Shown: positions 1 to 54,182, numbered from the stretch's first letter. The stretch: 64,000 nucleotides of DNA from a virus (IMGVR_UViG_3300020469_000023:35096-99095); one strand, 5' to 3'. Translations and numbers: made by a program. The notes: a model not told the origin generated them from the sequence alone.

Positions 1-863
1 ATCATCAAACCTCTTCTACCACCTGCCCAAATAGTTGACATACCACCTGTAGCAATACCTGCCGCGAGTAGACCCATACCTTTAACACCAGCAGGTGTTG
101 CCAATACTTCTGTGAATCCTATATTACCTGCAATTGCTTCTGGTATACTAGATAAGTCATAGTCACTATCTAAGTTACCTGAGAATGACATTTGTAACCA
201 CTGATATGTTAAAAATCCTGCTATTCCTACACCAGCAACTGTTTTTAATTTAGGGTACTTATTAAGAAACTCATCAACTTTTATTGTACCTTTTTGTAAT
301 CCTTGTACCATTTGTGTGGCCGCTACTTTATCTGAGGCAAAGTTTACTGCACTATCTACTGTTTTAAGACCATCAAGTGCAACTTTACCACCACCCATAC
401 CAACTGCCTTAACTGCTTTGAAGACACTTTTTTCTTTGATTGCATTTACGAGTTCGTCTCGTGCAACACCTAAATCTTTTGTAATCTGATTTACTTCACT
501 ACTAAGTGCTTTCTTTAATGTTGGGTGTTTACTGAGAGGTTCGTTATATCTTTTCGGGTCTGGTGTATCTGCATCTGCAGAACTTGTTTTGACATCAACA
601 CTTTTATTAGTATCAGTAGTGGGTGTGTCTTTAGTTGATAGATAAGACCTCATTGCTTTTGCAGTATCAGATTGTGGATTCTTTTTAATATAGTCTTGTT
701 GAAACTTTTCACCTTTGTCTTGCCACCAAGGTGTCTTTTCGTCTTCTAATAACATACACCAGTCATTGTATGTACATTCATTCAGTTCACGATTTACTTG
801 TTGTTCAAACAAGAATGTGCCTTCTGTTAGTTCTTGGTGATTGACGTAAGTTGTAAACTTCAC
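1..863 (-). CDS. Hypothetical protein, 3'-truncated by window edge (MKFTTYVNHQELTE...), Gly/Ala-rich hydrophobic C-terminal part
   Basis: Manual translation: GTG at 863 overlaps the TGA of the upstream gene (GTGA); frame is open to the window edge; not in the ORF track. Confidence 0.75.
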   Translation of the reverse strand, partial: MKFTTYVNHQELTEGTFLFEQQVNRELNECTYNDWCMLLEDEKTPWWQDKGEKFQQDYIKKNPQSDTAKAMRSYLSTKDTPTTDTNKSVDVKTSSADADTPDPKRYNEPLSKHPTLKKALSSEVNQITKDLGVARDELVNAIKEKSVFKAVKAVGMGGGKVALDGLKTVDSAVNFASDKVAATQMVQGLQKGTIKVDEFLNKYPKLKTVAGVGIAGFLTYQWLQMSFSGNLDSDYDLSSIPEAIAGNIGFTEVLATPAGVKGMGLLAAGIATGGMSTIWAGGRRGLM

Positions 864-5013: not shown

Positions 5014-5352
5014 TTATTTAGTTTTTACGTACAGTCTATTTTTTGCTTGTTTTGTATTATCAAATGACATACCATACATTTTACCTATTCTATTGAGTTG
5101 TATGACTCTTTGATTGCTAGGCATGTTCATTAATTGTTTTTGCATTGTACCAAATAGTTTTTTCATTGCATCTATTTCAGTAGTAACCATTTGTCCTTCT
5201 TCTACATTTTCACCACGAGCATTCTTAAAATCTTGGGCCGAAGGTGCGCCTTTCTCACCAGGTTTTCTCATCTTCTTACCACTTTTTCGTTTCTTATGGA
5301 TATTGGCCCATAAAGACTCGTTTGAAGAAGCGAATTGTTTAAATGATTTCAT
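5014..5352 (-). CDS. Basic protein with capsid-targeting-like N-terminus
   Basis: MKSFKQFASSNE start; LWANIHKKRKSGKKMRKPGEKGAP. Confidence 0.6.
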   Translation of the reverse strand: MKSFKQFASSNESLWANIHKKRKSGKKMRKPGEKGAPSAQDFKNARGENVEEGQMVTTEIDAMKKLFGTMQKQLMNMPSNQRVIQLNRIGKMYGMSFDNTKQAKNRLYVKTK

Positions 5353-8060
5353 TTTCCGAGTAGTCTTTTTAGACCTTGAACTGTCATTTTCTTATCGTTC
5401 ATTGCAGTTTGAACTTTAAGTCTGTCTTGTGGTTTACGAATTGCATCAAACTTTTTCATCATCATCTTAGCATCTGCTGGTTTCAACATTACTTTTTTAC
5501 CATTTCGTAATTCTATTTGTGCAGGTCTTTGTAAATCTGTAACTTTTCTTATTTGCATAACAACATTTTTATCTGCGGCCTTTCTGTCATCTTTAGTTGC
5601 AACACCGTAACCATCATCGTCTTTATCTTTACGTTTACCCATATCTCTCATTGCATCTGCTTTTGCACGAGACATAGATTCTGTATTTATTGCCTTTTCT
5701 AAATCATCTGCCTGTTTTGCATGAGTCTTAGAACCACCTCTTAACTTCTTAACTAAGTCTTTGACAAATGGTTTGTCTTTGGCATCTAATGCTTCTGACT
5801 TAGGTTTCTCATGAGTATAACCCATTTTACCAAACTTCATATGGTCAGCATATGTATTTGCCATGACTTCTTTATCACCCTTATACATTTTATGTGGTTT
5901 AAAGTCTTTCTCATCTGCACATTCATTCTTAGGTTTCTCACCTCGTTCTTTCTTAGAGATTGCAATTGCGGCCTGTTGTGCGGGAGATACTGCTTCTATT
6001 TTATATTTTTTACCATAATTAGTCATAAGTGTTTTTAATGCTTTTAAATCTCTTTTGTCATAGGCATTTCCCAAAGCAAGATAAAGTGTAGAATCAATTT
6101 GTCCTTTTGGTTTAACAATCTTAGCAATTTTTTCTTGTTCTGCTTTACCCAATCTAGGGAATCTTTCTTTAACTCTTTGTAATATTGCTTTTTGGTTAGG
6201 TGATACTGCTTCTTTTTGCATTAACATTTTAGTATTAAGAGTTCCAATCATTTTAAGGATTGAGTCTCTTGCATCTAAAACTTTTTTATAGTCTTTGTTA
6301 TGTCTTGTATCTTTTAATTCTTTATCACCTATAGTTGCAATCTTTTGATAAGTTTGTAAAACCTTTTGCATGTCTTTGGAGAGTTTTTTCATTGCATCTA
6401 CTTCTTGTCTTGTGACTTCTTGTAAATCAGTTGACTCTTTTCTTGATTTACCAGCAACTTTCATTGTAAGATTAACAAGTCCTGGTAATTTAAGTGTGTC
6501 CATTCTTTTCTTGTTCTGTGAATTAACTTTGTCATATACAGATGCTATCATACTTGCAGTTGTTAAGTCAAGTTGCATACCGTCTATTTTCATCATAGAT
6601 TTTTTCTTAACTACTTGACGAACCTTCTTCATAGTTGCAGACTCTTCGTTAAGTGGTGTACCTGATTTATAACCTTCGTATATCAAACTGAATATTAATC
6701 CATTACTTGCTTGTAAAATAACTTCATAAACATCGTCCCTAATTGCAGTATCTAAATCTGCAAACAAGTTTAATTCTTTAGGGTCTCTCATTATCTTTTT
6801 ACCCTTTTTAGTAATAGTCATTCCTTTTGAGATTACATCAATTATCTTCTTAATTTTTGGGGCGTCCATTTCATCTCTCGGTTCACCTTTACCAAAAGCG
6901 GCGCCTTTCTTAGCGGCACCTCTTCTATCTTGGTTCATTATTCTTGCAAGTGACCTAACAATAAGAGAAGTATTCGGGTCTTTTATTTTATGTTTACCGT
7001 CTTTCTTTTTCTGAAGCATGTCCATGACATCATCATGTTCCATTGCTGGACCCGATGCTCTAGATTTTTTGAATTTGGTTCTAATTTTTCGTTCAAGACC
7101 GTCTTGGCCTGGTTTTAGTGCAAATTGTTTTTCTAACAAGTCAAGTTGTTCTTCAAGAGAGTTTAGTTGTGCAAGTACATCTTCTGTTGCAGTATCTTTA
7201 GTTCTTTGTATTTCGTCTTTCTCTTGTTCTGCTTCTCTTTTATGTTTTGCTTTTAAGTCTGCCATTTCTTTTGCTCTTTCAACTGCATCTTCAATTAAAG
7301 ACGGGTCTCCATAAGATGATTTACCTCTTGCCACTGCATCAAAGTCTCTTAACTGTTTCTTATTGCCACTCATAGTTACAAGAGTATCATTACCTTTTTT
7401 CTTAAATGCTACTTTCAACTTCATTAACTTTGCAGATGAATTAAACTTGTCCATTTCAGGTTTTTGTATACCTTTAACTCGGTAAGTCATCGTATTTTCA
7501 TTTATCGATTCTTTCATAGCAGGTAGTTCACCCATTTTAATCGCCATTCTTGAGAAACCTTTTGGATTTTGTTTCTGCATTGACTGTAAAACTTTAACAC
7601 TAGTCATGTTCATAAGATTTGCAATACCGTCTATCTCTTTTCTATTTCTAGTTTTGAATAGTTTACCCAACTTATCTTCCATAGACTCTTCAAGGTCTTT
7701 TCTTTTTAAAACTTTAGTTTTCTTTACTTTACCAAGTGGTATACCATCTGGCATTGCAACAGAAGTTGTGCTTGTCATATCTTCGTTTGCAGTTTTAAGT
7801 GCTTGTTGAACAACAGGCATCTTTGAAAGACCTCTTTTAAGTTTTTCTATTTCTTTACTTGCGAGAGTATAATTACCACCTAAATCAAGTGCAAGTTCAA
7901 TTGCTTTCTTAACTGTCTTGTCTTTAGCGGCCATTTTTGCTTTAGGATTATCTTTATAATACTTTGCAACTTCTTGACCCGTAAGTTTAGACTTACCCAT
8001 TTTAGATAATGGGTCTAACTTACCACCTTTAACTCTTTCAGATATGTCTCTGAACTTCAT
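5349..8060 (-). CDS. Large Lys-rich modular protein, putative head-internal polyprotein
   Basis: 903 aa; MKFRDISE start; modules delimited by Glu-ending motifs. Confidence 0.6.
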   Translation of the reverse strand: MKFRDISERVKGGKLDPLSKMGKSKLTGQEVAKYYKDNPKAKMAAKDKTVKKAIELALDLGGNYTLASKEIEKLKRGLSKMPVVQQALKTANEDMTSTTSVAMPDGIPLGKVKKTKVLKRKDLEESMEDKLGKLFKTRNRKEIDGIANLMNMTSVKVLQSMQKQNPKGFSRMAIKMGELPAMKESINENTMTYRVKGIQKPEMDKFNSSAKLMKLKVAFKKKGNDTLVTMSGNKKQLRDFDAVARGKSSYGDPSLIEDAVERAKEMADLKAKHKREAEQEKDEIQRTKDTATEDVLAQLNSLEEQLDLLEKQFALKPGQDGLERKIRTKFKKSRASGPAMEHDDVMDMLQKKKDGKHKIKDPNTSLIVRSLARIMNQDRRGAAKKGAAFGKGEPRDEMDAPKIKKIIDVISKGMTITKKGKKIMRDPKELNLFADLDTAIRDDVYEVILQASNGLIFSLIYEGYKSGTPLNEESATMKKVRQVVKKKSMMKIDGMQLDLTTASMIASVYDKVNSQNKKRMDTLKLPGLVNLTMKVAGKSRKESTDLQEVTRQEVDAMKKLSKDMQKVLQTYQKIATIGDKELKDTRHNKDYKKVLDARDSILKMIGTLNTKMLMQKEAVSPNQKAILQRVKERFPRLGKAEQEKIAKIVKPKGQIDSTLYLALGNAYDKRDLKALKTLMTNYGKKYKIEAVSPAQQAAIAISKKERGEKPKNECADEKDFKPHKMYKGDKEVMANTYADHMKFGKMGYTHEKPKSEALDAKDKPFVKDLVKKLRGGSKTHAKQADDLEKAINTESMSRAKADAMRDMGKRKDKDDDGYGVATKDDRKAADKNVVMQIRKVTDLQRPAQIELRNGKKVMLKPADAKMMMKKFDAIRKPQDRLKVQTAMNDKKMTVQGLKRLLGK

Positions 8061-8068
8061 TGATACTC

Positions 8069-8335
8069 CTATCTAAATGCTACTGAAACTCCAAGAACTG
8101 CCGCGTTTGCCGCAAATATCTCGTCTGTCTTACCTTTTCTTACGTATATCTCTTGATTACCAGCAAGTGTAAAAGTTCCTATTGCCACTCCAGCAGAAGT
8201 TTCAACTGTAACTAATCTTGCAGTACCACCACTATTAATAAGGCGAACTAATCCTGCTTTACCAAAATTACTACCATTAGTAGTCGATGTACCACATGCG
8301 GCCTCTGTTCCTAATACTTGAATATATCTTGCCAT
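8069..8335 (-). CDS. Small Gly/Ala-rich beta protein, possible virion protein
   Basis: 88 aa, GGAG SD, downstream of late promoter. Confidence 0.5.
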   Translation of the reverse strand: MARYIQVLGTEAACGTSTTNGSNFGKAGLVRLINSGGTARLVTVETSAGVAIGTFTLAGNQEIYVRKGKTDEIFAANAAVLGVSVAFR

Positions 8336-8344
8336 GTTTTTCTC

Positions 8345-8590
8345 CTAACCTAAATCTTGGTCGTGATTTAATTTAATACCTTTCTTTTTCTTAGTAATGA
8401 AGGCATTAACTCTTGCCATACCCCATTGTGCTGGAGTTGTCCCTGGTCTATGACCAGTTCTCCATGCGGCAACACCTCTATCGAATACTTTTTTTAAAGT
8501 TTTAAATGCAAATCCAGACTTTGATGCCTTGTTTTGAAGACCTTTAGTCGAACTTTCTTCTATTTCTGCATATTCTTTAAAAGATATCAT
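8345..8590 (-). CDS. DUF5824-like protein (likely start MISFKEYAEIEE at 8590)
   Basis: RGVAAWRTGHRPGTTPAQWGMARVNAF; TATAAATA 5 nt upstream of ATG 8590. Confidence 0.65.
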   Translation of the reverse strand: MISFKEYAEIEESSTKGLQNKASKSGFAFKTLKKVFDRGVAAWRTGHRPGTTPAQWGMARVNAFITKKKKGIKLNHDQDLG

Positions 8591-8595
8591 GTTTC

Positions 8596-8603
8596 TATTT
8601 ATA
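8596..8603 (-). promoter_or_regulatory. gp55-type late promoter TATAAATA
   Basis: TATAAATA-GAAAC-ATG. Confidence 0.75.
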
Positions 8604-8606
8604 CTA

Positions 8607-9845
8607 TTAGTCATCGCCAAACATTTGTTTGTATGATTTCGTATGTTTACTAAGTTTTGTTCCTTTCTTTCTTGCCTTTTTGTCTCCAGGTGCATCTTTG
8701 TATGCAGATGGATTATCATCGTCCATCTTACCATGTTTAGCAAAATGTGATGCTCTAGAACTTTTCGTTTTCTTTGCTACACCTTTATAGTAAACAGATG
8801 GTTGCGAACCTTCTTTATCTTTGACATCTTTATCTTGAGCAACTCTTGCCTTTTCTTTTTCCATGATAGTCGCAACGTCATCAACAATTTTTTCTGCAAC
8901 ACGTTTAGCAGTAGCAGTAGCAATTGCCATTTTTTTACTCATGTCCATTTTAGGGTTATCTTTTTCAATTGCTTTTGCTATCTCTTCTCTTTTCTTAAGT
9001 TCTGCTGGTGTTAGTTTCTTTTCAACAAGTTCTATTGCATCTAACCATTTACGTACTTTCTTTTTATCACTTGTTTCAATAATAACATAATTAGAACCTA
9101 ATACTGTAATAACACCAACTTCTTCTGATTCTTTGATAACAACAGTATCGCCTATTTCATAAAGACTACCTTTGATGTAGTTCTCTCGAAGTTCGTTTAA
9201 TTTACCAAGGTCAACATGACGTTTGAACTTTTTCTCTTCTTTAAGTCCCATGCCTTTACGAACATCATTAAATAACTTACGAGTATCTTTATCATTCATT
9301 GTGCTTGGTACACCTTGAGAGAATGCAGTATAATCATTTTGTTGAGCATTTGCTCTTTGTTTTGATGCAGACATACCAGCAACTCCTTCAGCATCTGGGT
9401 CACGTTCACCTGCAGACAATACATTAATTGATTCAAAGTTGTAGAAACCATGTCTACCTTTGACACCATTATACTTTTTCAATAGTGTGTCAAACTCTCT
9501 AACTCTATCAGAACCAACAATCATATTTACTTTACGATATCCTTGGTCATATAGTTCTGTTACAGCATCAAAGGCAGTTCTTATCTTTTTATTAATGATA
9601 ATACTTCTACCATGTTTTGGAAACATTTTTCGCATATGTTTGATTTTATCTGAGTAAGATAGTGGGTCTTTCTTTGGATTAGATACTTGTGAAGTAAAAA
9701 CTTTATAGTCATTTCTACCAGATTTCTTTGCTAAATTTTCAAGTACTTTACCATGTCCAATAGTAGGTGGATTCATTCTACCAAACGTGAAGAATACCTC
9801 TCTTTCTGCTTCAATTAAATATTGTGAAAAGTTTTTGATTGCCAT
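8607..9845 (-). CDS. Cytidylyltransferase-like (HxGH) nucleotidyltransferase with extra C-terminal modules
   Basis: FTFGRMNPPTIGH, VGSDRV, SAGERDPD, MSASK motifs. Confidence 0.8.
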   Translation of the reverse strand: MAIKNFSQYLIEAEREVFFTFGRMNPPTIGHGKVLENLAKKSGRNDYKVFTSQVSNPKKDPLSYSDKIKHMRKMFPKHGRSIIINKKIRTAFDAVTELYDQGYRKVNMIVGSDRVREFDTLLKKYNGVKGRHGFYNFESINVLSAGERDPDAEGVAGMSASKQRANAQQNDYTAFSQGVPSTMNDKDTRKLFNDVRKGMGLKEEKKFKRHVDLGKLNELRENYIKGSLYEIGDTVVIKESEEVGVITVLGSNYVIIETSDKKKVRKWLDAIELVEKKLTPAELKKREEIAKAIEKDNPKMDMSKKMAIATATAKRVAEKIVDDVATIMEKEKARVAQDKDVKDKEGSQPSVYYKGVAKKTKSSRASHFAKHGKMDDDNPSAYKDAPGDKKARKKGTKLSKHTKSYKQMFGDD

Positions 9846-9851
9846 GATATA

Positions 9852-10214
9852 TTACTTATCTTCTTTAGATTTCTTTTTCTTTGCTAACTCATCTTTCCTT
9901 ACTTGTGGTAAAATCTTTACAGCAAACTTTTTAATCTTATTTTTCATTTTGTCAAGTTTTTTCTCAATCTCATTTCTTCGAGCAAGAGATACTTGTTGAG
10001 GTGCTTGACCTTTAGTTATTTTCTTAAAGAACTTTAGACGTGCTTTTTTCAATGCACGTTTCTTTAGTTTCTCAGGTGATGCTATTTTACGGGCCGCTTT
10101 CTTTCGACCCATTGCGATTTTTGCCTTGATTTTTTTGAATTGACGAGACCTCTTCAACCTTTGTTGAACTGTCATTGCTTCGTCTGTAGTTGTGAACTCT
10201 TTAAATGATTTCAT
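9852..10214 (-). CDS. Very basic protein with capsid-targeting-like N-terminus
   Basis: MKSFKEFTTTDE start; K/R-rich. Confidence 0.6.
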   Translation of the reverse strand: MKSFKEFTTTDEAMTVQQRLKRSRQFKKIKAKIAMGRKKAARKIASPEKLKKRALKKARLKFFKKITKGQAPQQVSLARRNEIEKKLDKMKNKIKKFAVKILPQVRKDELAKKKKSKEDK

Positions 10215-10215
10215 T

Positions 10216-12462
10216 TTACCTCGGTTTATCCCATCCTTTCAATATATTAGCAGAAAAGTTATTATAAGAAAATTCTAATCTATCAACTAACTTAACTGCA
10301 CCACCACCTAACTTATCAATAGCAACATATCCTTCTGCACCTGTTGTTTTATAACCATTTCTTGTTTTTACAAATGCATCTATATTGCTAATGTTGTTTA
10401 ATCTATTTATAAGTTTTAGTTTTGCGAGAACTATATTCTTCTGTAAATCAAACATATTGACAAGCGAAACTCTATTTTGTGGTGAAAAGAACTTTAAAAT
10501 TGTGTCTAATTTATCTTGTTGTGTTTGTTTTCCTTTTGCAGTTTTACGTTTGTCCATTTCTTTTTTATATTTATTCTCAATCCAACGTATCAATCTTGCA
10601 GTATGTTTCTTACTGTCTGGTAACATTTGCCCTGCTCTAACAAAAGTATTATTGTATTGTTCGATTAATTGTGCAAGTTCTGGATTCTTTTCTAGTTCTC
10701 GAAGTGTATCACCAGCGACTTTGTTAAAAAGAAAACCAGCAGTACTTAAATAACCTGTAACTTCTGTTGTTTCTTTTTCATTCATTGTTGCCTCACCAGC
10801 GCCACTTAGTTCTGCATCTTGCGACCAAACTGCTGGAGAAGATGGTATCTTTTTCACACCATACGATGCTTTCATTGATGCAAAGTCTTTACCTTTATAT
10901 GTTGTATGCCAAACTATACCAATCTGTGACTTAGTAATACGTTTGGCCGCTTCTGTACCTGATTCAACTGCATAGACAATTGTGTTTGGGTGAAATGTAA
11001 TATACTGCTTACCATCTATTTTAGTTTTACTTAAGTCTTGTTTTGAGTATAAGAAGTCTCCTTGTATGACATCTTTAATACCAAGATTCTTTAAATGCTT
11101 CAATGCAAGTTTTAGTTTCTCTGCTAAATCGCCTGAAGTATCAGCATCAATATCAGCATTTGATTTATATACTTTTGGATTCTTAGCAAAGATACCTTTC
11201 TTAGCAACAAAGAACTTACCATCACTTGGGTCTTCACCACAGAAGATTGCTGGTGCACCATCCCACTTAACTGACATCTTAGTTGATGATTTACCTGCTA
11301 ACATATCACGTATACTTCTCAAGGCATTGATTGCCTCTCTTGTACCTTTGACTCCACCATACAAAACTTTATCTTCTATATGTGTCATGTGTGTATTCTT
11401 TTCTTCTGGTAAGAAAAGACTTTTGTAAGATTCTGTCTGAAATGGTGTCAACTTACGATACTTTTTATTGTTCTTCGGGTGATATTCCATGTAGTCTTCG
11501 TTTCTTTCTTTAGTTTTCTTTTTCATCTTATTAATATATGTACGATAGATTGCCGCTTCTGCAGATTTACCCATTTCTTTTGCACGTTGTTCCATAGCAA
11601 CTGCCGCTTGGATTTTGTGTGCATGTTTTTTACCAGAGTTTTCTATCTTCTTAACACTTGCTCTTGCAGTTTCAACGTCTTTAAATCCTAATCCATGTAT
11701 TGTACCTTTAGGGTTTTCATCTGTATATAAATCAGAATGTTTTTTAGAGTTAGCGGGTTGACCTTTCTTTCTAGGTATTCTAGGGTTTGTCTCTTCTTTC
11801 TGAGTCTTTATCCACTTTTGTGCAATTGGATTCATAGGTTTCTTGTCTGCAAATTGTTTTATTATTCTAAATGCTCTAGTTGTTTCTTTATTATAGTCTT
11901 TTCCATCTGAGTTGTCAACTATTGTCAATCTACTTTTAAATGCTCTTTGATATTTACCAACGTTTCTTTGAACATTGTCCCACATCTTTGCAACTTCTTT
12001 CGGGTCTAGTTTTCTTGCTCTTTCCATATTTCTACGTAAAGCAGTTTCTTTATCTGTGTTGACAAATATCATTGCAGTAGAATAACCTAATTCTTTTAGT
12101 TTTTCATTCTGTCTAATTATTTTATCTGCATCACGCCCTGTACCATCAATGACTAAACCAAGTCTGCCTTTCATATACATCATTTGTTGTTTTGCAGTCA
12201 ACTCTTTTGCTTTAGTTCTTATATCTTGACCACCAACAGAAAAAATATTATCAGGGTTCATTTCTAGACCTGCTTGATTCATTGCACGTTCAAATGCAGT
12301 ATCAGAATTTACAACTTTAAAACCTAAAGATGTAAGTCCTGTTTTACCAACAATAAATGATTTACCACTACCTGGTCCACCAGCAAGAAAGATTGCTTTG
12401 AAGATTGCAGGGTCATTAACACCTTCTTCAACTTCTGCTATGTGTTCATTAAAACTTAACAT
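10216..12462 (-). CDS. Fusion: N-terminal P-loop kinase (PNK/zeta-like) plus C-terminal DUF6267-like domain with ligase-type motifs
   Basis: GGPGSGKS, VIDGTG, RRNMERAR lid; KWDG, QGDFL, EGYV, VKLV. Confidence 0.7.
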   Translation of the reverse strand: MLSFNEHIAEVEEGVNDPAIFKAIFLAGGPGSGKSFIVGKTGLTSLGFKVVNSDTAFERAMNQAGLEMNPDNIFSVGGQDIRTKAKELTAKQQMMYMKGRLGLVIDGTGRDADKIIRQNEKLKELGYSTAMIFVNTDKETALRRNMERARKLDPKEVAKMWDNVQRNVGKYQRAFKSRLTIVDNSDGKDYNKETTRAFRIIKQFADKKPMNPIAQKWIKTQKEETNPRIPRKKGQPANSKKHSDLYTDENPKGTIHGLGFKDVETARASVKKIENSGKKHAHKIQAAVAMEQRAKEMGKSAEAAIYRTYINKMKKKTKERNEDYMEYHPKNNKKYRKLTPFQTESYKSLFLPEEKNTHMTHIEDKVLYGGVKGTREAINALRSIRDMLAGKSSTKMSVKWDGAPAIFCGEDPSDGKFFVAKKGIFAKNPKVYKSNADIDADTSGDLAEKLKLALKHLKNLGIKDVIQGDFLYSKQDLSKTKIDGKQYITFHPNTIVYAVESGTEAAKRITKSQIGIVWHTTYKGKDFASMKASYGVKKIPSSPAVWSQDAELSGAGEATMNEKETTEVTGYLSTAGFLFNKVAGDTLRELEKNPELAQLIEQYNNTFVRAGQMLPDSKKHTARLIRWIENKYKKEMDKRKTAKGKQTQQDKLDTILKFFSPQNRVSLVNMFDLQKNIVLAKLKLINRLNNISNIDAFVKTRNGYKTTGAEGYVAIDKLGGGAVKLVDRLEFSYNNFSANILKGWDKPR

Positions 12463-13549
12463 TTCTTTTTACTCTAATATCTGGTATCGCACCAAGAAAA
12501 GATGTAAGTTGTCTCAAACCTTTTTTAAAAAAGTTTGTAACTTTACTCCATGTTTTACTTACAAATGATTTAACTTTATTTAATATGTTAAATTCAACTA
12601 ATGTTTCTTTTTCATTTGTATCTAATTCTTCTGTCATAGAGTCTACTATTAATGAAATTACTGACCAGAAAAAATATTCTCCAGTTCCACCTTTTTCATT
12701 AGTCGGAGATACAAGTTCTTTTTTAGTTCGTTGTGATGTTTTAAACCTTGTTTGAAGTTTCATTGCAGTTGCTATTTTTTCACAATAACTATCATCATTA
12801 ACATCATGAATTTCTACTTTTCCACCGTCAGCAGTAGAGACCAACATTAAGTCTGCAGATGCTGGACTACTTTTACCAAATTTTTCATAACCTGACATTG
12901 CTTCTCTGGCAAATTCTATTTTAAATTCTTTAGACTGATTAAATAAATTACCAAGTTCTTTCATACAATCTTTGTGTGCTTTTTCCGCGGCATTAACTAC
13001 TTTGTTTGTACCCGCTTTAATTAAAGGTCTAATTTTTGAAGGTGCTAATGTATTTTTTACAAAACCTTCTAATACTTGATTTGTTTTTTTATATTGTGGA
13101 CTTTTTACTAAATCTGAATTAGAATTTTTAACTGCCGCTTGAAACGTTGCAGTTGATTCTGCTTTACCGCCAGACATTAGTTGTGCTAAACCTATTTTAA
13201 CTGAAAAGTTTTTATCACCTATTTTTACATCTGTTTTTGGTGTAGTATCAGAAGCATCATATGATTTCCAAAAATCTGTTAAACTAGATTTTGTTCTACC
13301 AAATACTTCTGCTTTTTTATTTTTTAGTTGTGGGTAATCTTTTAGTATTTTTGTTGCAATTAATTCACCTGTTTTTTTGGCACTTGGAGTATTTTCTATT
13401 TTATCGTAAAGTTGTTGTTTAATACCATAATCTTCTGTAGATTCCATTACTCTTTTAGTTACAGTATAAAAACCCATAACTATTGCCGCTTCATAATCTT
13501 CTGCTTTTAATTTTGCTTCTGTCAAAAAATTATTTTTAAATGAATGCAT
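12449..13549 (-). CDS. Putative PD-(D/E)XK nuclease-fold protein with capsid-targeting-like N-terminus
   Basis: MHSFKNNFLTEA start; TPKTDV...FSVK. Confidence 0.5.
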   Translation of the reverse strand: MHSFKNNFLTEAKLKAEDYEAAIVMGFYTVTKRVMESTEDYGIKQQLYDKIENTPSAKKTGELIATKILKDYPQLKNKKAEVFGRTKSSLTDFWKSYDASDTTPKTDVKIGDKNFSVKIGLAQLMSGGKAESTATFQAAVKNSNSDLVKSPQYKKTNQVLEGFVKNTLAPSKIRPLIKAGTNKVVNAAEKAHKDCMKELGNLFNQSKEFKIEFAREAMSGYEKFGKSSPASADLMLVSTADGGKVEIHDVNDDSYCEKIATAMKLQTRFKTSQRTKKELVSPTNEKGGTGEYFFWSVISLIVDSMTEELDTNEKETLVEFNILNKVKSFVSKTWSKVTNFFKKGLRQLTSFLGAIPDIRVKRNVKF

Positions 13550-13721
13550 ATCCGAACTCTGTTAATATCTGTTGTTTATCTATTGCTTCATCAAGAGGCA
13601 ATCTCTGTATTGTTGATGTAAAGTTGAAAAATTCTGTGATGATTACAGTATCATCTTCTAGAATTGAAAAGTTGACGAAGTGTCCTTCGTCTTCCATTGT
13701 TCCTGCCCAACATTGTGTCAT
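13536..13721 (-). CDS. Small hypothetical protein
   Basis: 61 aa; TATAAATA 6 nt upstream; overlaps start of next gene. Confidence 0.55.
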   Translation of the reverse strand: MTQCWAGTMEDEGHFVNFSILEDDTVIITEFFNFTSTIQRLPLDEAIDKQQILTEFGYAFI

Positions 13722-13727
13722 AACTAC

Positions 13728-13735
13728 TATTTATA
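13728..13735 (-). promoter_or_regulatory. gp55-type late promoter TATAAATA heading the internal-protein-like cluster
   Basis: TATAAATA-GTAGTT-ATG. Confidence 0.75.
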
Positions 13736-18280: not shown

Positions 18281-18577
18281 ATGAACAATATAATGAAATT
18301 ATTAATGGAAGTGGGTATCCCGATTGGTAGTGCAATCATCATGGGGTTCTTTATCTTTCTGACTTTAAAATACATTTTAGATAGTGTTGGTGGTTCTGTT
18401 ACAGGTCTTACTAACATTATGAATGGTTTAGAGTCAAGAGTTCGTCAAATGAATAATGATATGATAAAGATTGACTTGTTAGTAAGTGAGTCTTTAGATT
18501 TAAGACCAGACATCGATAGAGTTGCGAGAGCAGAAAACTTTATGGAAGATGGTAAGATAGACTCTAGGAGAGATTAA
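18281..18577 (+). CDS. Small membrane protein (N-terminal TM plus coiled coil)
   Basis: EVGIPIGSAIIMGFFIFLTL; RVRQMNNDMIKI. Confidence 0.75.
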   Translation: MNNIMKLLMEVGIPIGSAIIMGFFIFLTLKYILDSVGGSVTGLTNIMNGLESRVRQMNNDMIKIDLLVSESLDLRPDIDRVARAENFMEDGKIDSRRD

Positions 18578-18906
18578 TGAACAGCAGTAATATTAATCAA
18601 ATTGTTTTGATTATTGATGAGGTTGGTTATCCAGTTTTAATGGCAATCGGTATGGGATATTTTATCTGGTATGTTTGGAAGTATGTGACGAAAGAACTAA
18701 AACCAAAAATTGGTGCTTCACATAAGACTCTTATTAAATTATTAGACCAGATTAGAATGCTTGACAATGACTTGATACGATTACAACAGAAAGTAAATAC
18801 TGTAATCGAATATAGAAAACAAGAAGAATTAAAAAAACAAGGGCAAGAAGATGAAGACAGCACAGTATATATTAATGATATGGGTAAGTCTAACGATAAC
18901 AAGTAA
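18577..18906 (+). CDS. Small membrane protein, paralogue of preceding gene
   Basis: EVGYPVLMAIGMGYFIWYVW; QIRMLDNDLIRL. Confidence 0.75.
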   Translation: MNSSNINQIVLIIDEVGYPVLMAIGMGYFIWYVWKYVTKELKPKIGASHKTLIKLLDQIRMLDNDLIRLQQKVNTVIEYRKQEELKKQGQEDEDSTVYINDMGKSNDNK

Positions 18907-19333
18907 TTTGTTTGCTGACCAGATAGTTCATAAATTTAAATCTCCATCATTTAGTGGTATTGGACAATCGTCACACTATTTAACAATAGAGAATCAACAG
19001 AAGTCTCGTAGAGATAAGATTCAAGAAGATATCGAATCTGCAATTGCAAAAGCAGAACGTGAAGCAGATAGTACGACCCATGCTAAGTTCCTTAGAAACT
19101 TAGAGTCAAGAATCTATGCTCAAATATCAAAACAATTAGTTGACCAAATGTTTGGTGATGGAGTAAATGAAGGTTCAATAGAAGGTTTCTTTGATATGCT
19201 TGGTAATACTGTAGCATACGAATTATGTACAGGTTGTGGTGATGATGGTATTGATGTAATTAGAATTACAATTACAGGCGATGATAATACAACAACAACA
19301 TTAGATGTACCAGTAGGTAGTGGAGCATTTTAG
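18851..19333 (+). CDS. csgF: Curli assembly protein CsgF
   Basis: Signal peptide then DQIVHKFKSPSFSG; FLRNLESRIYAQISKQL; precedes csgG. Confidence 0.8.
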   Translation: MKTAQYILMIWVSLTITSNLFADQIVHKFKSPSFSGIGQSSHYLTIENQQKSRRDKIQEDIESAIAKAEREADSTTHAKFLRNLESRIYAQISKQLVDQMFGDGVNEGSIEGFFDMLGNTVAYELCTGCGDDGIDVIRITITGDDNTTTTLDVPVGSGAF

Positions 19334-20205
19334 TGAAAATATTTTTATTGATAGGAGTATTCGTTCTATCAAGTTGTGCTAGTATTCCTTCTTTCTCACG
19401 TATAGATTGTGATGAAAGAGAATTAGCATGTCGAGAAAGTGCAACTATAGAAAAGTTGCCATCGACAGCAGAATTAAAAAAAGTGCCAGGTCCAAGTAAT
19501 GGTAAACCTGTAGTAGTTGCAGTTTATGGATTTACAGACAAAACTGGCCAAAGAAAAAGTAGAGATACATTTTCAGATTTTTCTACTGCAGTAACACAAG
19601 GTGCAGATTTACTTGTTATTGATGCACTTAAAACTGCAAGTAATGGAGAGTGGTTTAGAGTAGTTGAGAGAACTAATATAGATGCTCTCATAAGAGAAAG
19701 GCAAATAATAAGAAGTTCTAGAGAAGAGTTTAAAGAAGATAAACAACTAGCATCTTTAGTATTTGCAGGGATTTTAATTGATGGTGGTGTTGTTGGGTAC
19801 GACACTAACATCGAAAGTGGTGGTCGTGGAGCAAGATACTTAGGTATCGGACACAATACATCATATAGAAGAGATTCAGTAATTGTTAGTCTAAGGGCAA
19901 CCTCAACACTAACAGGTGAAATTTTAATGAATGTTCAGGCGAAAAAAACTATTTTGTCTGTCGGTGGCGGTTATGATTTATTCCGATTCTTTGATATGGA
20001 TACAAAGTTATTGGAATTTGAAGATGGTAACGGATTTAACGAAAGTGTAACGTTTGCAGTTCGCTCCGCTATTGAAGTTGCCGTATTAGAACTTATTTAC
20101 CAAGGACACGATAGAGGTTTTTGGAAAATGAAAAGTGACCATCGTCACCCACACTTAAGTGATGGGACTAACGATAAACACTTAATAACTAAGGAGAAAG
20201 AATGA
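19333..20205 (+). CDS. csgG: Curli secretion channel CsgG
   Basis: Lipobox LSSC; VAVYGFTDKTGQRK, FSTAVTQG, WFRVVER, ERQIIR, GARYLGIG. Confidence 0.92.
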   Translation: MKIFLLIGVFVLSSCASIPSFSRIDCDERELACRESATIEKLPSTAELKKVPGPSNGKPVVVAVYGFTDKTGQRKSRDTFSDFSTAVTQGADLLVIDALKTASNGEWFRVVERTNIDALIRERQIIRSSREEFKEDKQLASLVFAGILIDGGVVGYDTNIESGGRGARYLGIGHNTSYRRDSVIVSLRATSTLTGEILMNVQAKKTILSVGGGYDLFRFFDMDTKLLEFEDGNGFNESVTFAVRSAIEVAVLELIYQGHDRGFWKMKSDHRHPHLSDGTNDKHLITKEKE

Positions 20206-21119
20206 GAACTTTAATTCTCGCTTTATTATTAACAGCAAGTGCTTTTGCATTTGCGGATAATGAAATATATATCGAGCAAGTTGGTGAAGGTGTAGAAATT
20301 ATTATTGAACAAACAGGTAATGGAAACTTGATTGGGCAAAATACTAGCACTGGTGCTAATGCGACCGACATGAAACTGCAGATAGGTAACTCTAATGCAT
20401 ATTGGTTGTTTAATGGAAGTAACAACTTACTATTTGGTGATATCAACTCAGATGGTTCAAACATTGACTATAATGTTCAAGGTTCGAACAACAGAATCAA
20501 TCAATTGATTGGTACTGTAACTGGTAATACTAGTAGTAATCAAAGTGCAGATGCCATTGATATGAATGTAGATGTTCAAGGTGATTATAACCAGACAACG
20601 TTTAGGTTAGGTAATAAATCTGAAACTTACAATACACCTCATAATTTAGGTGATGGTGCATTTTTTAACAATAGTGCAGGTTTTAAAACGTATAGCAATC
20701 ATACATTTACAGGTAGTAACATCACGGGTTATGGAACTTATGGTGGTAATGCTACAAGTAACTATGGGTCAAATGCCGCATATTGGGATGCCTGGAATAT
20801 TACAGAAGGTAGTGCTGATGGTGCCAACATTGACTTATTAGTTGATGGCAGTGGTGCTTCAAATACTATTGGTGCATTTATAAACTCTTCAAATGCTGTT
20901 TGGGATTGGGACATAACTGGTTCAAATAACTGGATATTAACAACTCAAGAAGATGGAAGTGATAATAAAATATCTGTTGATTTAACAGGTGATAAAAACT
21001 ATGTATTTGTTGGTCAAAGAACAGGTACAAGTATAAGTGGTGCAGAGGCGATATTAGATGCAAGTTTTGTTACAGACGGTTCAGAAATTACGATTATTCA
21101 ACAAGATACTGGCGAGTAA
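20202..21119 (+). CDS. Curlin-like secreted Asn/Gly-rich beta-solenoid protein
   Basis: Signal peptide; NEIYIEQVG, IIIEQTGNGN, GSNN repeats. Confidence 0.7.
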   Translation: MRTLILALLLTASAFAFADNEIYIEQVGEGVEIIIEQTGNGNLIGQNTSTGANATDMKLQIGNSNAYWLFNGSNNLLFGDINSDGSNIDYNVQGSNNRINQLIGTVTGNTSSNQSADAIDMNVDVQGDYNQTTFRLGNKSETYNTPHNLGDGAFFNNSAGFKTYSNHTFTGSNITGYGTYGGNATSNYGSNAAYWDAWNITEGSADGANIDLLVDGSGASNTIGAFINSSNAVWDWDITGSNNWILTTQEDGSDNKISVDLTGDKNYVFVGQRTGTSISGAEAILDASFVTDGSEITIIQQDTGE

Positions 21120-22209: not shown

Positions 22210-23036
22210 TTAAATTTTTAAAAGAAAATACATCACCACAAGGTATAAAGACTATCGTAACAATGTGGATTTTATTTGCATTTGCTATTGGTGGTTGTGA
22301 ATATGTATATGCTGATAATGAAGTATATATTACTCAAAGTGGTGAAGGTACAAAGTTGTTTATCGAACAAGAAGGTAAAGATAATAAAGTAGACTTCTCA
22401 ATGCAACATCAGGGTAATGAAGTAAAAATAATCCAGCATGGGCATAATAATAAAATAGCATATGGACATTGGGGTTCACTAACTAGTGGAGATATAGATG
22501 GAACGTTTAATTCATTAGACTTTGCACAAATATGTGGACGTGGTTCAAGTTGTAAAGAATCTGATATCGGTCTGCATATCTATGGAGACAATAACTCAAT
22601 ACGTTGGGGACAAGGATATATTTTAAGTTCTCCGACTTCAACTTGGACATGGGACGGAAGTGAAGGTGGTGGTCATCATCTAACTTTAGATGTTCATGGA
22701 GATAATAATAATGTTGCGGGTAGTCAAAGAAACTCATCTGCAGGCATCTATAGTGAACACCAAGCAGATATCTATCTTTACTCTAATAACAATAGTGTTT
22801 TTTGGAGACAAAATACAGATGGTGTTAAAGATGTAAATTTATACACATATAATGATGGTAATAATATTACTGGTTATCAATCTGGTTATGCAACACATAC
22901 TGCAAATATATCTTTAACTGGGTCTAGTCCAACAACATTAAATTTAACTCAAGAAGGTAACTCTGCTCAATCATATTCACTATCACAAAACTGCCAAACT
23001 ATGGGTGGTTGTAGCATTTCTGTTACACAACAATAA
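22206..23036 (+). CDS. Second curlin-like secreted protein
   Basis: NEVYITQSG, FIEQEGKDN, IIQHGHNN, GDNN repeats. Confidence 0.7.
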   Translation: MIKFLKENTSPQGIKTIVTMWILFAFAIGGCEYVYADNEVYITQSGEGTKLFIEQEGKDNKVDFSMQHQGNEVKIIQHGHNNKIAYGHWGSLTSGDIDGTFNSLDFAQICGRGSSCKESDIGLHIYGDNNSIRWGQGYILSSPTSTWTWDGSEGGGHHLTLDVHGDNNNVAGSQRNSSAGIYSEHQADIYLYSNNNSVFWRQNTDGVKDVNLYTYNDGNNITGYQSGYATHTANISLTGSSPTTLNLTQEGNSAQSYSLSQNCQTMGGCSISVTQQ

Positions 23037-23041
23037 AGACA

Positions 23042-24871: not shown

Positions 24872-24875
24872 CGTT

Positions 24876-50869: not shown

Positions 50870-52174
50870 TTAAGTTAAGATATTAGTAACCTTAAATATT
50901 CTGTAGTAGAAGTTAGTTTTAACAGATGCAAGACCGTTAGCAGGTGTAGAACCTACAAATGGGTTTGACGCCATTCCGTATCTTGTTTTAAAACCTATTC
51001 TAGGTTGGAAAGTATCTTCCCCAACTGCTTTAACCATTTGTAAAGGTACATATGGGCAGTAGAAAACACCAGCGTCATAAGGGTTAGTACCTTTATAACC
51101 TACAGTACAGTAGTCTGTGTTTGCATATGGGTCGATATACACTTTGATTCTTCCGTTAAGAAGACCAGCAAATGTATTTCCAGTATCGTCAACATTTAAG
51201 TTGTTCGCTATACCTGGAGAGTAATCTAAAGTTCCAGCGGCCGCTAAAGCAGTTGCAACATCAGAAGAACAGATTAGGATATTTCCTTTTCCTCTTCTTG
51301 AGTCTTTCGCTATCTGATTACATTCTCTATCTATTTGAACACCTAAACCTTTGAACTTCTCAGCACTCCATCTTCCATCAGCATCAGAAGACATATTGAA
51401 CACACCATTAACAGTAACGTTTGCTTGTTGGGCACCGTCTTTTGCTTGTGAGTTAATAGTTCTGATAACTTCTCTATTGATTTCCGCTAAGATTTCAGTA
51501 GATAAGATGTTAGCAAGTTCAGTTTCAGCATCTAAACCGTGGATTGCTTTAAGGTCTTGAGCAAGTTCTAAAGTGTACTCTGCTTTTAAGGCACGTGAAA
51601 CAGCAGTTACAGTTGATTTCTCAATTGTAAAACCCATTTCATTGAAAGTACTACCAGTAGTTGCACCAAGTTCCTCAGCATCTACAGTAGGCATACCAGA
51701 AGCGGTAAGAGCAGTTAATCTTAAACCTGCTGAGTCAATACCATTGTAACCTGAAACGTTGTCAGAATCATGAGTTCCAGATGAGTCACCTGAAAATCTA
51801 GTTTCTGCTTCGCTGAACAATGCTTCTCTATTAGAAGTTGAACCACCTTGGTATCTTGCCTTCATAGCAAAGATTAAACCAGTTGGTCCATTCATTGGTT
51901 GAACACCACATACATCGTATGCGATTAAGTTAGGCATAGCACGTCTAACTAATGAGATTAAGACTGGGTCAAAATTGGACACACTTGAAGTATTGTTAGC
52001 AGGTGCGGCCTCAAATAACATAGTCTCGTTTTGTTCTGCAATTGCTTTCTCTTGGTTTTCCAAAAGGGCCGCAGTTACGGAACGCCTGTGATTGTCTTTA
52101 ATGGCGCCAGCAGATTCTTCATCTAAGACTGGTTTCCATTTTTCAATCAGGTTGTCATAACTTTGAATTTCCAT
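50870..52174 (-). CDS. gp23: Major capsid protein gp23
   Basis: LVRRAMP, GVQPMNGPTGLIFAM, SRALKAEY, FYCPYVPL, FKTRYG. Confidence 0.98.
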   Translation of the reverse strand: MEIQSYDNLIEKWKPVLDEESAGAIKDNHRRSVTAALLENQEKAIAEQNETMLFEAAPANNTSSVSNFDPVLISLVRRAMPNLIAYDVCGVQPMNGPTGLIFAMKARYQGGSTSNREALFSEAETRFSGDSSGTHDSDNVSGYNGIDSAGLRLTALTASGMPTVDAEELGATTGSTFNEMGFTIEKSTVTAVSRALKAEYTLELAQDLKAIHGLDAETELANILSTEILAEINREVIRTINSQAKDGAQQANVTVNGVFNMSSDADGRWSAEKFKGLGVQIDRECNQIAKDSRRGKGNILICSSDVATALAAAGTLDYSPGIANNLNVDDTGNTFAGLLNGRIKVYIDPYANTDYCTVGYKGTNPYDAGVFYCPYVPLQMVKAVGEDTFQPRIGFKTRYGMASNPFVGSTPANGLASVKTNFYYRIFKVTNILT

Positions 52175-52200: not shown

Positions 52201-53292
52201 TTAATTTTTAGATTGAGTTTTTCTTAAAGTAGAAACATACTTATCCATTGAAGAATTAGATTCGATTAACTCGTCACTTTCTCCTTCACTTTCTTCGGAT
52301 ATCATATCGTCACTACCGCTAGGTTCGTTAGAGAAATGTGCTTCTTTAACAACTTTAACTTTTTCTGCATACTTTTCAGCATCTTCAAAGTCTAAGTCAT
52401 TAACTAAAGATTTTAATTTCTCAACTTGTGTGTCAGCAAGGTCAGAAGAAGATTCTCTGATAATTTCCTCTTTCTTCATTTCTTCTAACTCACCGCTTTG
52501 GTCGATAACTTTCTGAGTAGTTTCATTGAGTTTAGACTCAAGTTCTTCTACTTGTTCAGCAAGTTCGTCAACTAGGTCAACTTTGGACTCAGGAACTTCG
52601 ATGTAAGATTCACTAAATAAATCTTTCAACTTAGACATAAACCCTTCGGCGATTTCAGTCCTAAGACCGTTCTCAACCTGAAGTTCATTTTCCTTAACCC
52701 AATTTTCAACTACATAATTAAGGTATGAATCGACTTTCTCAACCATTTCAGATTTAGTTGAAGATAACTCTTCTTCTAATTCTTCTTTGTATTGAGATTC
52801 TAATCTATCAATTTCTTCTGATAGTTTAGATTTTACTGCCGCTTCAAATATTACTGCAGTTTTTTCCTTGAACTCATCACTTAGAGTTGCTTCGGATTCG
52901 ACTAGTGCATTTAAATCGCCCATAGTGTCAACTTCTGGTGATTCAACAATTGCTTCACCTTCCATTTCTTCTACTTCTTCTTTTTTCATGTGATAATTGG
53001 CATACATGCCTTCCATGTCTGATTTAGACATTTTCAACATTTTGTCAGTCATCGCACTAATCATGCCTGCTTTTGTTTTCGGTGCAGGTGCCTGTTTAGG
53101 TTTTACCGCATCGGCCGCTTTATCTACAGATGCAATAGACTCAGGTTCGCTTACTGGACTGGCGTCCTTAGCACTACCTTTTGCCTTTACACTTGACATT
53201 GCTTCCGCTTCTTCGAGAGTTTCTTCCACGATTTCGTTAACTACTTCATCAGTAGAAGTCTCGACTTCATCATTTCTGATTTCATCTGTCAT
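52201..53292 (-). CDS. gp22: Prohead core scaffold gp22
   Basis: FKEKTAVIFEAAV, KVDSYLNYVVENW. Confidence 0.93.
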   Translation of the reverse strand: MTDEIRNDEVETSTDEVVNEIVEETLEEAEAMSSVKAKGSAKDASPVSEPESIASVDKAADAVKPKQAPAPKTKAGMISAMTDKMLKMSKSDMEGMYANYHMKKEEVEEMEGEAIVESPEVDTMGDLNALVESEATLSDEFKEKTAVIFEAAVKSKLSEEIDRLESQYKEELEEELSSTKSEMVEKVDSYLNYVVENWVKENELQVENGLRTEIAEGFMSKLKDLFSESYIEVPESKVDLVDELAEQVEELESKLNETTQKVIDQSGELEEMKKEEIIRESSSDLADTQVEKLKSLVNDLDFEDAEKYAEKVKVVKEAHFSNEPSGSDDMISEESEGESDELIESNSSMDKYVSTLRKTQSKN

Positions 53293-53316: not shown

Positions 53317-53976
53317 CTATGTTCTCGATTTAATTAACGAGAGGAAATTTTTAAATTCTCTTACAGAAGTCTCATAAGCGACTTTTCTGGGAGCATTTTT
53401 AATTTCTGTCTCCATTTCTTCAATTTCTTGAGGTTTTAAAACACCGTTATTCCAAACCCACTCAACACCTTCCATTATACCATTAACAAATGCTTCTGGT
53501 GCCGATGGGTCTTGCACGATATCAACTGTGCTAAGAATGAAGTCCTCTCGGACTTGCATAGCGCCGTTTCTATTCTCAAGACTACCCATACCACGAGTTG
53601 ACACTCCTAGTTGAACTCCGCCATCAAGAAGACCTTTTACAATCTTACCATTTGGCGTATCAAGTATTTGCGCCTTTCCTACTACATCAGTTCCCTCAAA
53701 TTTGAGTTCTTTGATTAAGTGTGAAACTTTATCTAAATTAACAGTTGGTCCTTCTGGGTGATTTAATTCACCGACCGCTCTGTTAGTTTTTATTTGTTCT
53801 TTATCATATTTTGCAACTGCTTTTTCCATGATTGCTTTAGGATATACTCGACCATTTCTATTCTTCTTGTCGGTCTGTGCAAATATTCCTTGAATCTTAT
53901 ACTGCTTTTCACCAGCATCATTCTTTTCAACAATACATTCTAAACTACTTTCTGTATATTCTGTAATTAACTTCAT
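53317..53976 (-). CDS. gp21: Prohead protease gp21
   Basis: NRNGRVYP, GELNHP, GVSTRGMGS, DPSAPEAFV. Confidence 0.96.
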   Translation of the reverse strand: MKLITEYTESSLECIVEKNDAGEKQYKIQGIFAQTDKKNRNGRVYPKAIMEKAVAKYDKEQIKTNRAVGELNHPEGPTVNLDKVSHLIKELKFEGTDVVGKAQILDTPNGKIVKGLLDGGVQLGVSTRGMGSLENRNGAMQVREDFILSTVDIVQDPSAPEAFVNGIMEGVEWVWNNGVLKPQEIEEMETEIKNAPRKVAYETSVREFKNFLSLIKSRT

Positions 53977-54182
53977 GTAAGTTCCTTTATAGTTGCTGTT
54001 ATTGCCCTTTCGGCATCTTTTTGATTCTTATACGAATCTAACTTATCACCATCCACATATGCGATAAACGGCAGACTACCAGTATCTTTGGTAATCACCA
54101 CGTCTATACGATTCATCTTTTTCTTGAAGACGATTTTACCCTTAGGTTTTACCGCTTCTCTAAGCGAAAAAAATGTTTTCAT
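53973..54182 (-). CDS. Small prohead core-region protein (gp68 position)
   Basis: MKTFFSLREA start; directly upstream of gp21. Confidence 0.55.
   Translation of the reverse strand: MKTFFSLREAVKPKGKIVFKKKMNRIDVVITKDTGSLPFIAYVDGDKLDSYKNQKDAERAITATIKELT

Follow-up and report, generated by a model that had tools for sequence, protein, structure and literature searches.

Late genes with T4-type capsid-targeting leaders in a pelagimyophage: a candidate set of head-internal cargo proteins

The stretch of DNA analysed here, referred to below as the window, comprises 64,000 nucleotides (IMGVR_UViG_3300020469_000023:35096-99095) of a 99-kb contig (31 to 37% G+C). It belongs to a T4-like pelagimyophage of the family Kyanoviridae with a SAR11 host, and encodes T4-type gp20, gp21, gp22 and gp23, together with DNA polymerase, clamp loader, UvsX, gp41, gp46/47 and a curli-type operon. 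On its minus strand, from 13,735 down to 5,014, lies a single block of tightly packed late genes, several of whose products begin with a short leader resembling the capsid-targeting sequence found on T4 internal head proteins; two genes outside the block, starting at 863 and 54,182, begin in a similar way. The nearest named relatives, all Kyanoviridae, are the Pelagibacter phages Mosig and HTVC008M and phage C48C1, and the sole near-identical DNA in the phage collection is a 166-bp stretch of Mosig. The gene order is common to IMG/VR contigs that are near-identical (97%) or more distant (55 to 89%).

The block contains the following genes, all on the minus strand (a slash marks the expected cleavage point). 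The product of g366 (12449..13549; 366 amino acids, MHSFKNNFLTEA) has the leader MHSFKNNFLTE/A at residues 1-11, a predicted MspI/HinP1I endonuclease fold and a net charge of +15. It is followed by g748 (10216..12462; 748 amino acids, MLSFNEHIAEVEE; leader MLSFNEHIAE/V), in which a P-loop kinase (residues 14 to 220 approximately), a basic linker and a DUF6267 domain (residues 350 to 748 approximately) are joined, and by g120 (9852..10214; 120 amino acids, leader MKSFKEFTTTDE/A), a histone-like protein with 28% lysine whose start is the closest match to the leader of T4 internal protein I (IPI). Next is g412 (8607..9845; 412 amino acids, MAIKNFSQYLIEAE), encoding a nucleotidyltransferase with a HIGH motif, similar to nicotinamide mononucleotide adenylyltransferase (NMNAT), with a basic tail and the leader MAIKNFSQYLIE/A, in which the motif is shifted by two residues. 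The block ends with g81 (8345..8590; 81 amino acids, leader MISFKEYAEIEE/S), a DUF5824 protein, g88 (8069..8335; 88 amino acids), conserved and without a leader, g903 (5349..8060; 903 amino acids, short leader MKFRDISE/R), a lysine-rich protein of net charge +75 with orthologues of 489 to 1179 amino acids, and g112 (5014..5352; 112 amino acids, leader MKSFKQFASSNE/S), a small basic protein. No recognisable domain was found in g120, g112 or g903 by Pfam, PHROG and NCBIfam profile searches. The idea that g903 is a polyprotein cut at many gp21 sites was rejected, the motif [LI]-x-E (leucine or isoleucine, any residue, glutamate) occurring 9 times in it versus 6.9 in shuffles. A 61-amino-acid open reading frame (ORF), g61 (13536..13721), lies between the promoter and g366 and overlaps the start of g366; it is absent from this place in two related loci (L003 and L010), and may be an insertion and possibly no real gene.

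Outside the block, and also on the minus strand, g287 (3..863) starts with GTG, has the leader (M)KFTTYVNHQELTE/G and runs off the window; its orthologues in relatives start MKTFTDF, MKKFKEF or MKTFQEF. The gp68 position, immediately upstream of the protease gene, is occupied by a gene for a 69-amino-acid basic protein starting MKTFFSLREA (53973..54182; leader MKTFFSLRE/A). The N-termini listed in the preliminary description are all real, each beginning at a true start codon, the GTG at 863 and the start at 54,182 included. For g81 a correction is needed: the true ATG is at 8590, and the orthologues in locus L012 and C48C1 begin alike.

The head genes that a T4-type targeting system involves, for protease, scaffold, capsid and portal, are all present in the window. 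The prohead core serine protease, a gp21 homologue (53317..53976, minus strand; Peptidase_S77, 1.6e-39), is 37% identical to T4 gp21 with the GELNHP and S-x-RG-x-GS blocks conserved, and is presumably the enzyme that removes the leaders. Their docking partner is presumed to be the acidic T4-type scaffolding core protein, a gp22 homologue (52201..53292, minus strand; T4_CASP, 3.2e-61) with a net charge of -53. The major capsid protein gp23 (50870..52174, minus strand) has a likely maturation site, L-F-E/A-A, at residues 53-56.

Five products of the block start M-x-S-F-[K/N]; a sixth shows the motif displaced by two residues, and a seventh carries a short variant of it. The leaders span 8 to 14 residues from the initiator methionine, in agreement with the starts of orthologues; T4 propeptides are 10 to 19 residues long (PMC9026906). 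In the T4 record, ipI begins MKTFKEFTSTTT (MKTFKEFT) and ipII and ipIII begin MKTYQEFIAEA. Mapping in T4 (Mullaney and Black, as reviewed in PMC9026906) assigned targeting mainly to residues 4 and 7 and processing to residues 8 and 10. Phenylalanine is found at position 4 in five window genes, combined with phenylalanine at position 7 in g120 and g112 and with tyrosine there in g81. The g748 leader has F4, H7, I8 and E10; cyanophage orthologues have F4, F7, L8 and E10. Shifted aromatic pairs occur in g366 (F4 and F8, with a one-residue insertion) and in g412 (F6 and Y9). The ends conform to [LI]-x-E in g748 (IAE), g366 (LTE), g412 (LIE), g81 (IEE), g903 (ISE), g287 (LTE) and the ORF in the gp68 position (LRE). 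Seven of the first eight residues of g120 are identical to those of T4 IPI, with no BLASTP similarity beyond the leader, and T4 gp23 is cut after F-L-T-E65/A, a tetrapeptide with which the g366 leader also closes. The resemblance to the T4 capsid-targeting sequence proposed in the preliminary description is borne out against the T4 record itself and against the mapped targeting determinants (4 and 7), and in part against those for processing (8 and 10).

The tag is portable, heading non-homologous proteins in the window genome, HTVC008M, C48C1 and IMG/VR relatives. In relatives it is found on orthologues and also on a 69-amino-acid protein (MKTFGQHSKELEE), a 439-amino-acid protein (MIKFKDI), a 100-amino-acid protein (MKKFKEFTG) and a stand-alone kinase (MLRFKQFLDE). 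All tagged proteins have a net charge between +9 and +75 and contain 13 to 28% lysine, as against -53 for the scaffold.

Two scorings were used to assess how specific the tag is within the genome. With T4 7-mers as the reference and 760 internal 7-mers anchored on methionine as controls, g120, g112 and g81 scored 33, 30 and 22, and the best internal control 19. The second scoring used a position matrix trained only on leaders of T4, C48C1, HTVC008M and cyanophages, and was applied to 146 window genes and 753 internal controls. The five top genes were g120, g112, the 69-amino-acid ORF adjoining the protease gene, g748 and g81 (17.6, 11.2, 6.4, 6.4 and 5.7; best internal control 6.0), and four of these five fall in the eight-gene block (hypergeometric probability about 2e-5). 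No replication, tail or capsid gene among the 146 scores with the matrix. The leader pattern is therefore not due to chance; the earlier statement that the replication genes lack it was correct, and the motif is not equally common outside the late genes, the top hits being the block and the ORF next to the protease gene.

The g366 product had been proposed to have a nuclease fold, and it does so as a predicted structure. In its AlphaFold2 model (predicted local distance difference test score, pLDDT, 78.6) residues 1-11 are disordered, and a structural scan with the model matched HinP1I (Z 10.3; 188 residues, root-mean-square deviation 3.8), MspI (Z 9.9; 203 residues, deviation 4.2) and HhaI (Z 6.8), the next unrelated structure having a Z of 5.2; Foldseek gave MspI a probability of 0.99. 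The prediction that g366 adopts the MspI/HinP1I restriction-endonuclease fold therefore holds. Three residues, D107, S116 and K118, do not vary among 43 homologues; predicted to sit on adjacent strands, they may correspond to the catalytic D...(Q/N/E)-x-K motif. The leader itself is highly variable in a set of 120 g366 homologues (MKFKTYLTEA, MLQFQEFLTEA and MKKFSTYLTEA are examples), yet it always closes with [LI]-x-E, immediately followed by the invariant mature start LKAEDYE. Domain scans of the block revealed no methyltransferase, and no genome-wide search for one was made.

Tetranucleotide counts were considered separately. GATC and AGCT each have 0 copies in the 99,095 bp of the contig, versus about 290 and 95 to 298 expected, and CGCG is depleted across the contig (5 versus 19 to 73 expected). 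GATC is absent from all close pelagimyophage loci, including those without a g366 homologue, and AGCT only from the closest. The proposal that g366 cuts a motif avoided by the phage is unsupported: GATC is missing also where there is no g366, and L010, whose g366 is 89% identical, carries 12 copies of AGCT.

The product of g748 combines, by Pfam, a Zeta_toxin/AAA_33 P-loop kinase with DUF6267. The AlphaFold2 model of DUF6267 has a pLDDT of 94, and in the structural scan all matches with more than 175 aligned residues were RNA ligases, at a modest Z of 7.2 to 8.1 over 178 to 205 residues: the Naegleria nick-sealing ligase (8.1), Trl1 (7.7 and 7.6), T4 Rnl1 (7.4) and T4 Rnl2 (7.3). Foldseek was weak on the same model (DNA ligase IV, probability 0.5), the RNA-ligase matches appearing only in the full structural scan. 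The motif I residues of K-x-D-G (K59, D61 and G62 of the ligase domain) are invariant in 108 sequences that are 34 to 59% identical to the query, as are E370-G371 and K384, which would correspond to ligase motifs IV and V. We conclude that the assignment of DUF6267 as a predicted RNA-ligase-fold nucleotidyltransferase domain holds, and with it the kinase/ligase description given earlier for this gene, on the strength of the Pfam kinase matches, the predicted fold and the invariant K-x-D-G.

At 50% identity the DUF6267 family falls into about 2,575 clusters, and its domain begins with a conserved H-x-H-x-E-D block. Among 94 cluster representatives 25 have no leader at all, and most others carry M..F..[FY][LI].E directly before that block. 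PHROG profiles reveal fusions of DUF6267 to a transferase of the g412 type in other phages. A stand-alone kinase of 223 residues, which shares 55 to 60% identity with the N-terminal domain of g748 and is headed by the leader MLRFKQFLDE, is encoded in the loci L016-L020 (IMG/VR, 38 to 41% G+C), which represent a different phage type with unrelated neighbour genes, and in which GATC is not avoided. When solved structures were searched by sequence only, neither g748, g412 and g366 nor the DUF6267 profile yielded a usable match.

For g412 the nucleotidyltransferase claim likewise stands, by a CTP_transf_like match just over threshold (22.1 bits versus a cutoff of 21) and a HIGH-type motif, P-T-I-G-H-G, at residues 26-31. 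NCBIfam matches of NadD type are weak (E about 0.03), and look-ups in NCBIfam and Atlas added nothing on substrates. Residues 201-327, which separate the transferase domain from the basic tail, are enriched in [LI]-x-E (9 versus 2.8 expected); these internal motifs could be protease sites.

Proteomes of cyanophage particles, cited here from the accessible parts of the papers, bear directly on g412. A transferase of the g412 type was found in purified S-SM1 virions by Sullivan et al. (PMC3037559). S-SCSM1 has a virion-detected NMNAT, ORF91, and ORF89, 90, 92, 93 and 97 are virion proteins too (PMC9602691). In S-CREM2, 52 proteins were reported in particles purified on caesium chloride (PMC10665884). 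The g412 product is 40% identical to ORF91 of S-SCSM1, whose leader is MKSFLQFLKE, and 31% identical to ORF154 of S-CREM2, both virion-detected. A targeting leader is not mentioned in the examined parts of the S-SM1, S-SCSM1 and S-CREM2 papers (PMC3037559, PMC9602691, PMC10665884).

S-CREM2 provides a test of the leader score, as the matrix was trained without its sequences: 208 ORFs from almost the whole genome were scored, of which 48 are virion-detected. Ranks one to four went to ORF14 (APH-like kinase, VKRFDAFLTEE), ORF6 (S-adenosylmethionine (SAM) hydrolase, MKDFDSFLEE), ORF154 (cytidylyltransferase, MKNFSSFLTE) and ORF136 (MQTFSMFFSE). All four are virion-detected (probability about 0.003 given 48/208), as are five of the top six, and ORF87, a DUF6267 homologue that lacks a leader, is missing from the virion proteome. 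The leader score thus predicts virion detection in S-CREM2.

A further S-CREM2 protein may have been annotated from a wrong start: in ORF12 (L026, record 7704-10313), a virion-detected 'Cas9-like' protein, a leader-like L-R-F-A-S-F-M-A-E-A lies 18 residues inside the annotated start.

Taken together, we consider it probable that the block, with the outliers at 863 and 54,182, encodes head-internal proteins of a T4-like pelagimyophage that bear a T4-type leader and are loaded with the DNA for the next cell. The leader would be a propeptide of 8 to 14 residues homologous to the T4 tag, with an aromatic residue at position 4, an aromatic residue or histidine at position 7, and an aliphatic-x-Glu sequence directly afterwards or a few residues later. 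During prohead assembly the tag would dock the protein on the acidic gp22-type core; the Peptidase_S77 protease would then cut after the glutamate, as in the F-L-T-E/A context of the T4 gp23 maturation site. Once released, the mature proteins, rich in lysine, would remain associated with the packaged DNA and exit together with it at infection, and the cargo would act on nucleic acids and nucleotides before phage gene expression. Packaging into the head is well supported by inference from these data. Docking, cleavage after the glutamate, retention with the DNA, ejection and activity in the next cell are inferred steps.

Sequence, predicted fold and homology show what the candidate cargo consists of: a pair of small, basic, histone-like proteins, the 903-amino-acid basic protein, the DUF5824 protein, the protein with the predicted endonuclease fold, the fusion of kinase and predicted RNA-ligase fold, and the NMNAT-like transferase. 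Their likely use would be action on nucleic acids and nucleotides before phage expression. The anti-defence role suggested in the preliminary description is only a possibility, as are RNA repair, supply of nicotinamide adenine dinucleotide (NAD+) and attack on host DNA.

Several observations weigh against packaging by a T4-type tag. The leaders of g120 and g112 end in T-D-E and S-N-E, not in [LI]-x-E, and those of g903, g412 and g287 can be aligned only by shifting the register; g903 and the gene at 863 are the weak members, fitting only through such a shift or only through their orthologues. In the g366 family, 25 of 120 orthologues have only a seven-residue start, MQxL[LT]EA, without an aromatic pair, and this short start is genuine, lying 6 nucleotides after a late promoter. 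In S-SCSM1, ORF90, 92 and 93 are virion-detected in the syntenic block yet have no leader, so that proteins must also reach the particle by other routes than the tag. In the accessible parts of the cyanophage virion studies, the authors allow for carry-over of abundant proteins, and two papers state that contamination cannot be excluded. No virion data for pelagimyophages, this phage included, were found in the literature, and no peptide-level evidence of leader cleavage was found in the published Kyanoviridae proteomes, as far as their accessible parts go.

The leader may also target proteins to the prohead core where they have their only function, in assembly, charge neutralisation or condensation there or in the filled head, and be degraded or idle in the next host. 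The strongly basic, lysine-rich composition of all tagged proteins fits such a role, since the lysines of T4 internal proteins contact DNA phosphates (PMC3012670), and g120, g112 and g903 have no recognisable enzyme domain. However, four members of the cargo keep catalytic-type motifs (DUF6267 its invariant K-x-D-G, E-G and K, g366 its D..S-x-K, g412 its HIGH motif, and the kinase its P-loop), which is hard to explain for a mere DNA counter-ion, and the orthologues present in mature virions are evidently not fully degraded. We therefore regard a role confined to the head as unlikely.

Alternatively, the shared N-terminus might be a feature of translation start or expression of late genes, made of A/T-rich codons spread by recombination, with no targeting involved. 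The first 15 nucleotides are indeed common to g120 and g112, the Shine-Dalgarno sequence is weak before several of these genes, and an MK start is common among phage proteins. However, families that are 35 to 60% identical preserve the pattern in the protein even though codons and residues differ; the pattern matches the mapped T4 determinants, is missing from highly expressed late structural genes and predicts virion association in S-CREM2. An expression feature is accordingly very improbable. Least credible of all is an inhibitory propeptide, removed by the protease and holding dangerous enzymes (nuclease, kinase) inactive in the producer cell independently of packaging: a protease-type site does end the leader and the cargo does include a restriction-endonuclease fold, but the same tag heads small non-enzymatic basic proteins, a disordered peptide of 8 to 14 residues is unlikely to block such different active sites, and the sole protease of this specificity acts within the prohead.

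Packaging by the leader, the reading we prefer, relies on a mechanism that is T4's own and already known. As in T4 IPI, IPII and IPIII, there is a putative N-terminal propeptide with aromatic residues at 4 and 7 and, in most leaders, an aliphatic-x-Glu site on basic, lysine-rich late proteins (PMC9026906, PMC3012670), a gp21-type protease and a gp22-type core are encoded alongside, and the tag is conserved on unrelated mature parts. In contrast to T4, the phage belongs to another family (Kyanoviridae, with a SAR11 host), a single block holds seven or more tagged genes, the putative cargo includes several large enzymes (366 to 903 amino acids, versus the inhibitor or DNA-binding proteins of 8 to 21 kDa in T4), and some leaders are register-shifted or lack the aliphatic residue. 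T4 Alt, an injected ADP-ribosyltransferase processed by gp21, is a precedent for a large enzyme in a T4-type head that is delivered with the DNA before phage expression, although its enzymology is different and it is processed at both ends (PMC9026906).

Related in content are the virion NMNAT-like cytidylyltransferases, kinases and SAM hydrolase of S-SM1, S-SCSM1, S-CBWM1 and S-CREM2, which according to the accessible parts of the sources (PMC3037559, PMC9602691, PMC10665884) and our comparisons include a g412 orthologue (31 to 40% identity) in the same syntenic block and with the same leader. To this set the pelagiphage adds a protein with a predicted endonuclease fold, and its kinase-ligase fusion bears a leader that the counterparts in S-RIM8 and S-CREM2 lack. 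Other head-internal sets loaded during assembly are the propeptide-bearing ejection proteins of giant phages (SPN3US and phiKZ type) and the Dar proteins of P1, in the giant phages with trimming by the prohead protease before ejection; in what was accessible of that literature, their targeting signals are unrelated or undefined, and their capsid lineages are different. Finally, g748 resembles RNA-repair enzymes that heal and seal (T4 Pnkp with Rnl1; fungal Trl1, LIG-KIN) in joining a P-loop kinase to a predicted RNA-ligase fold, but the order is kinase then ligase, no phosphoesterase domain is seen, and the Z is only 7 to 8.

The T4 literature has already suggested that the tag may let T4-like phages load varied proteins (PMC9026906). 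What is new is the pelagimyophage setting, the tight cluster of at least seven tagged genes, the cargo with endonuclease and kinase-ligase folds, and the presence or absence of the tag across DUF6267; no paper on a capsid-targeting sequence in cyanophages or pelagiphages was found in the literature outside subscription journals. If the tag works as in T4, a genome or metagenome sequence is enough to predict the protein cargo of the ocean's most abundant myoviruses, the pelagi- and cyanomyophages. This would explain why NMNAT-like transferases, kinases and a SAM hydrolase are found repeatedly in cyanophage particles, where it was undecided whether they are contaminants. It also gives a lead to the function of DUF6267, as a predicted RNA-ligase-fold enzyme that is often head-targeted, and raises the question of how a protein with a restriction-endonuclease fold is packed beside the phage's own DNA. 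In practice, a short natural tag with many variants could be useful for loading proteins into T4-type capsids.

A more speculative extension, which we consider less likely than not, is that this pelagimyophage, and the Kyanoviridae in general, deliver a 'first-minute toolkit' that is independent of translation and recognisable by its sequence tag. The endonuclease would be directed against host DNA, the kinase-ligase would heal cut RNA or DNA (for instance after the action of host anticodon or other nucleases), and the NMNAT-like enzyme would sustain or rebuild NAD+. In slow-growing, ribosome-poor SAR11 cells, such a set would replace the early-gene programme of the T4 style.

Late promoters had been placed at 13728 and 8596, and the T4-type late-promoter-like motif TATAAATA is present at both (13728..13735 and 8596-8603, minus strand). 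The first heads the block, and the same motif with the same spacing is found 5' of the g366 orthologue in L003 and L010. For the second, a promoter role for g81 is doubtful, because it lies only 5 nucleotides before the ATG. The window contains 16 copies of the motif versus 9.7 expected. At three places on the minus strand, 13728-13735 (g61), 8596-8603 (g81) and 1471-1478 (g201), it is only 5 to 6 nucleotides before an ATG, and transcripts starting from these motifs would be leaderless or nearly so.

Beyond the block, the DUF7207 gene (g118, 1474-1830) and the following gene of 201 amino acids (860-1465) adjoin the cargo genes also in HTVC008M, C48C1, S-RIM8, S-N03, S-CREM2 and S-SCSM1, and this conserved neighbourhood makes the cargo block one syntenic module across the Kyanoviridae. 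On the plus strand, the curli-type operon (18281-25097) encodes CsgG/CsgF-like proteins, curlin-like repeats, a FecR-like protein and a CHASE2 cyclase; such an operon is already known from pelagimyophages (PMC7029224).

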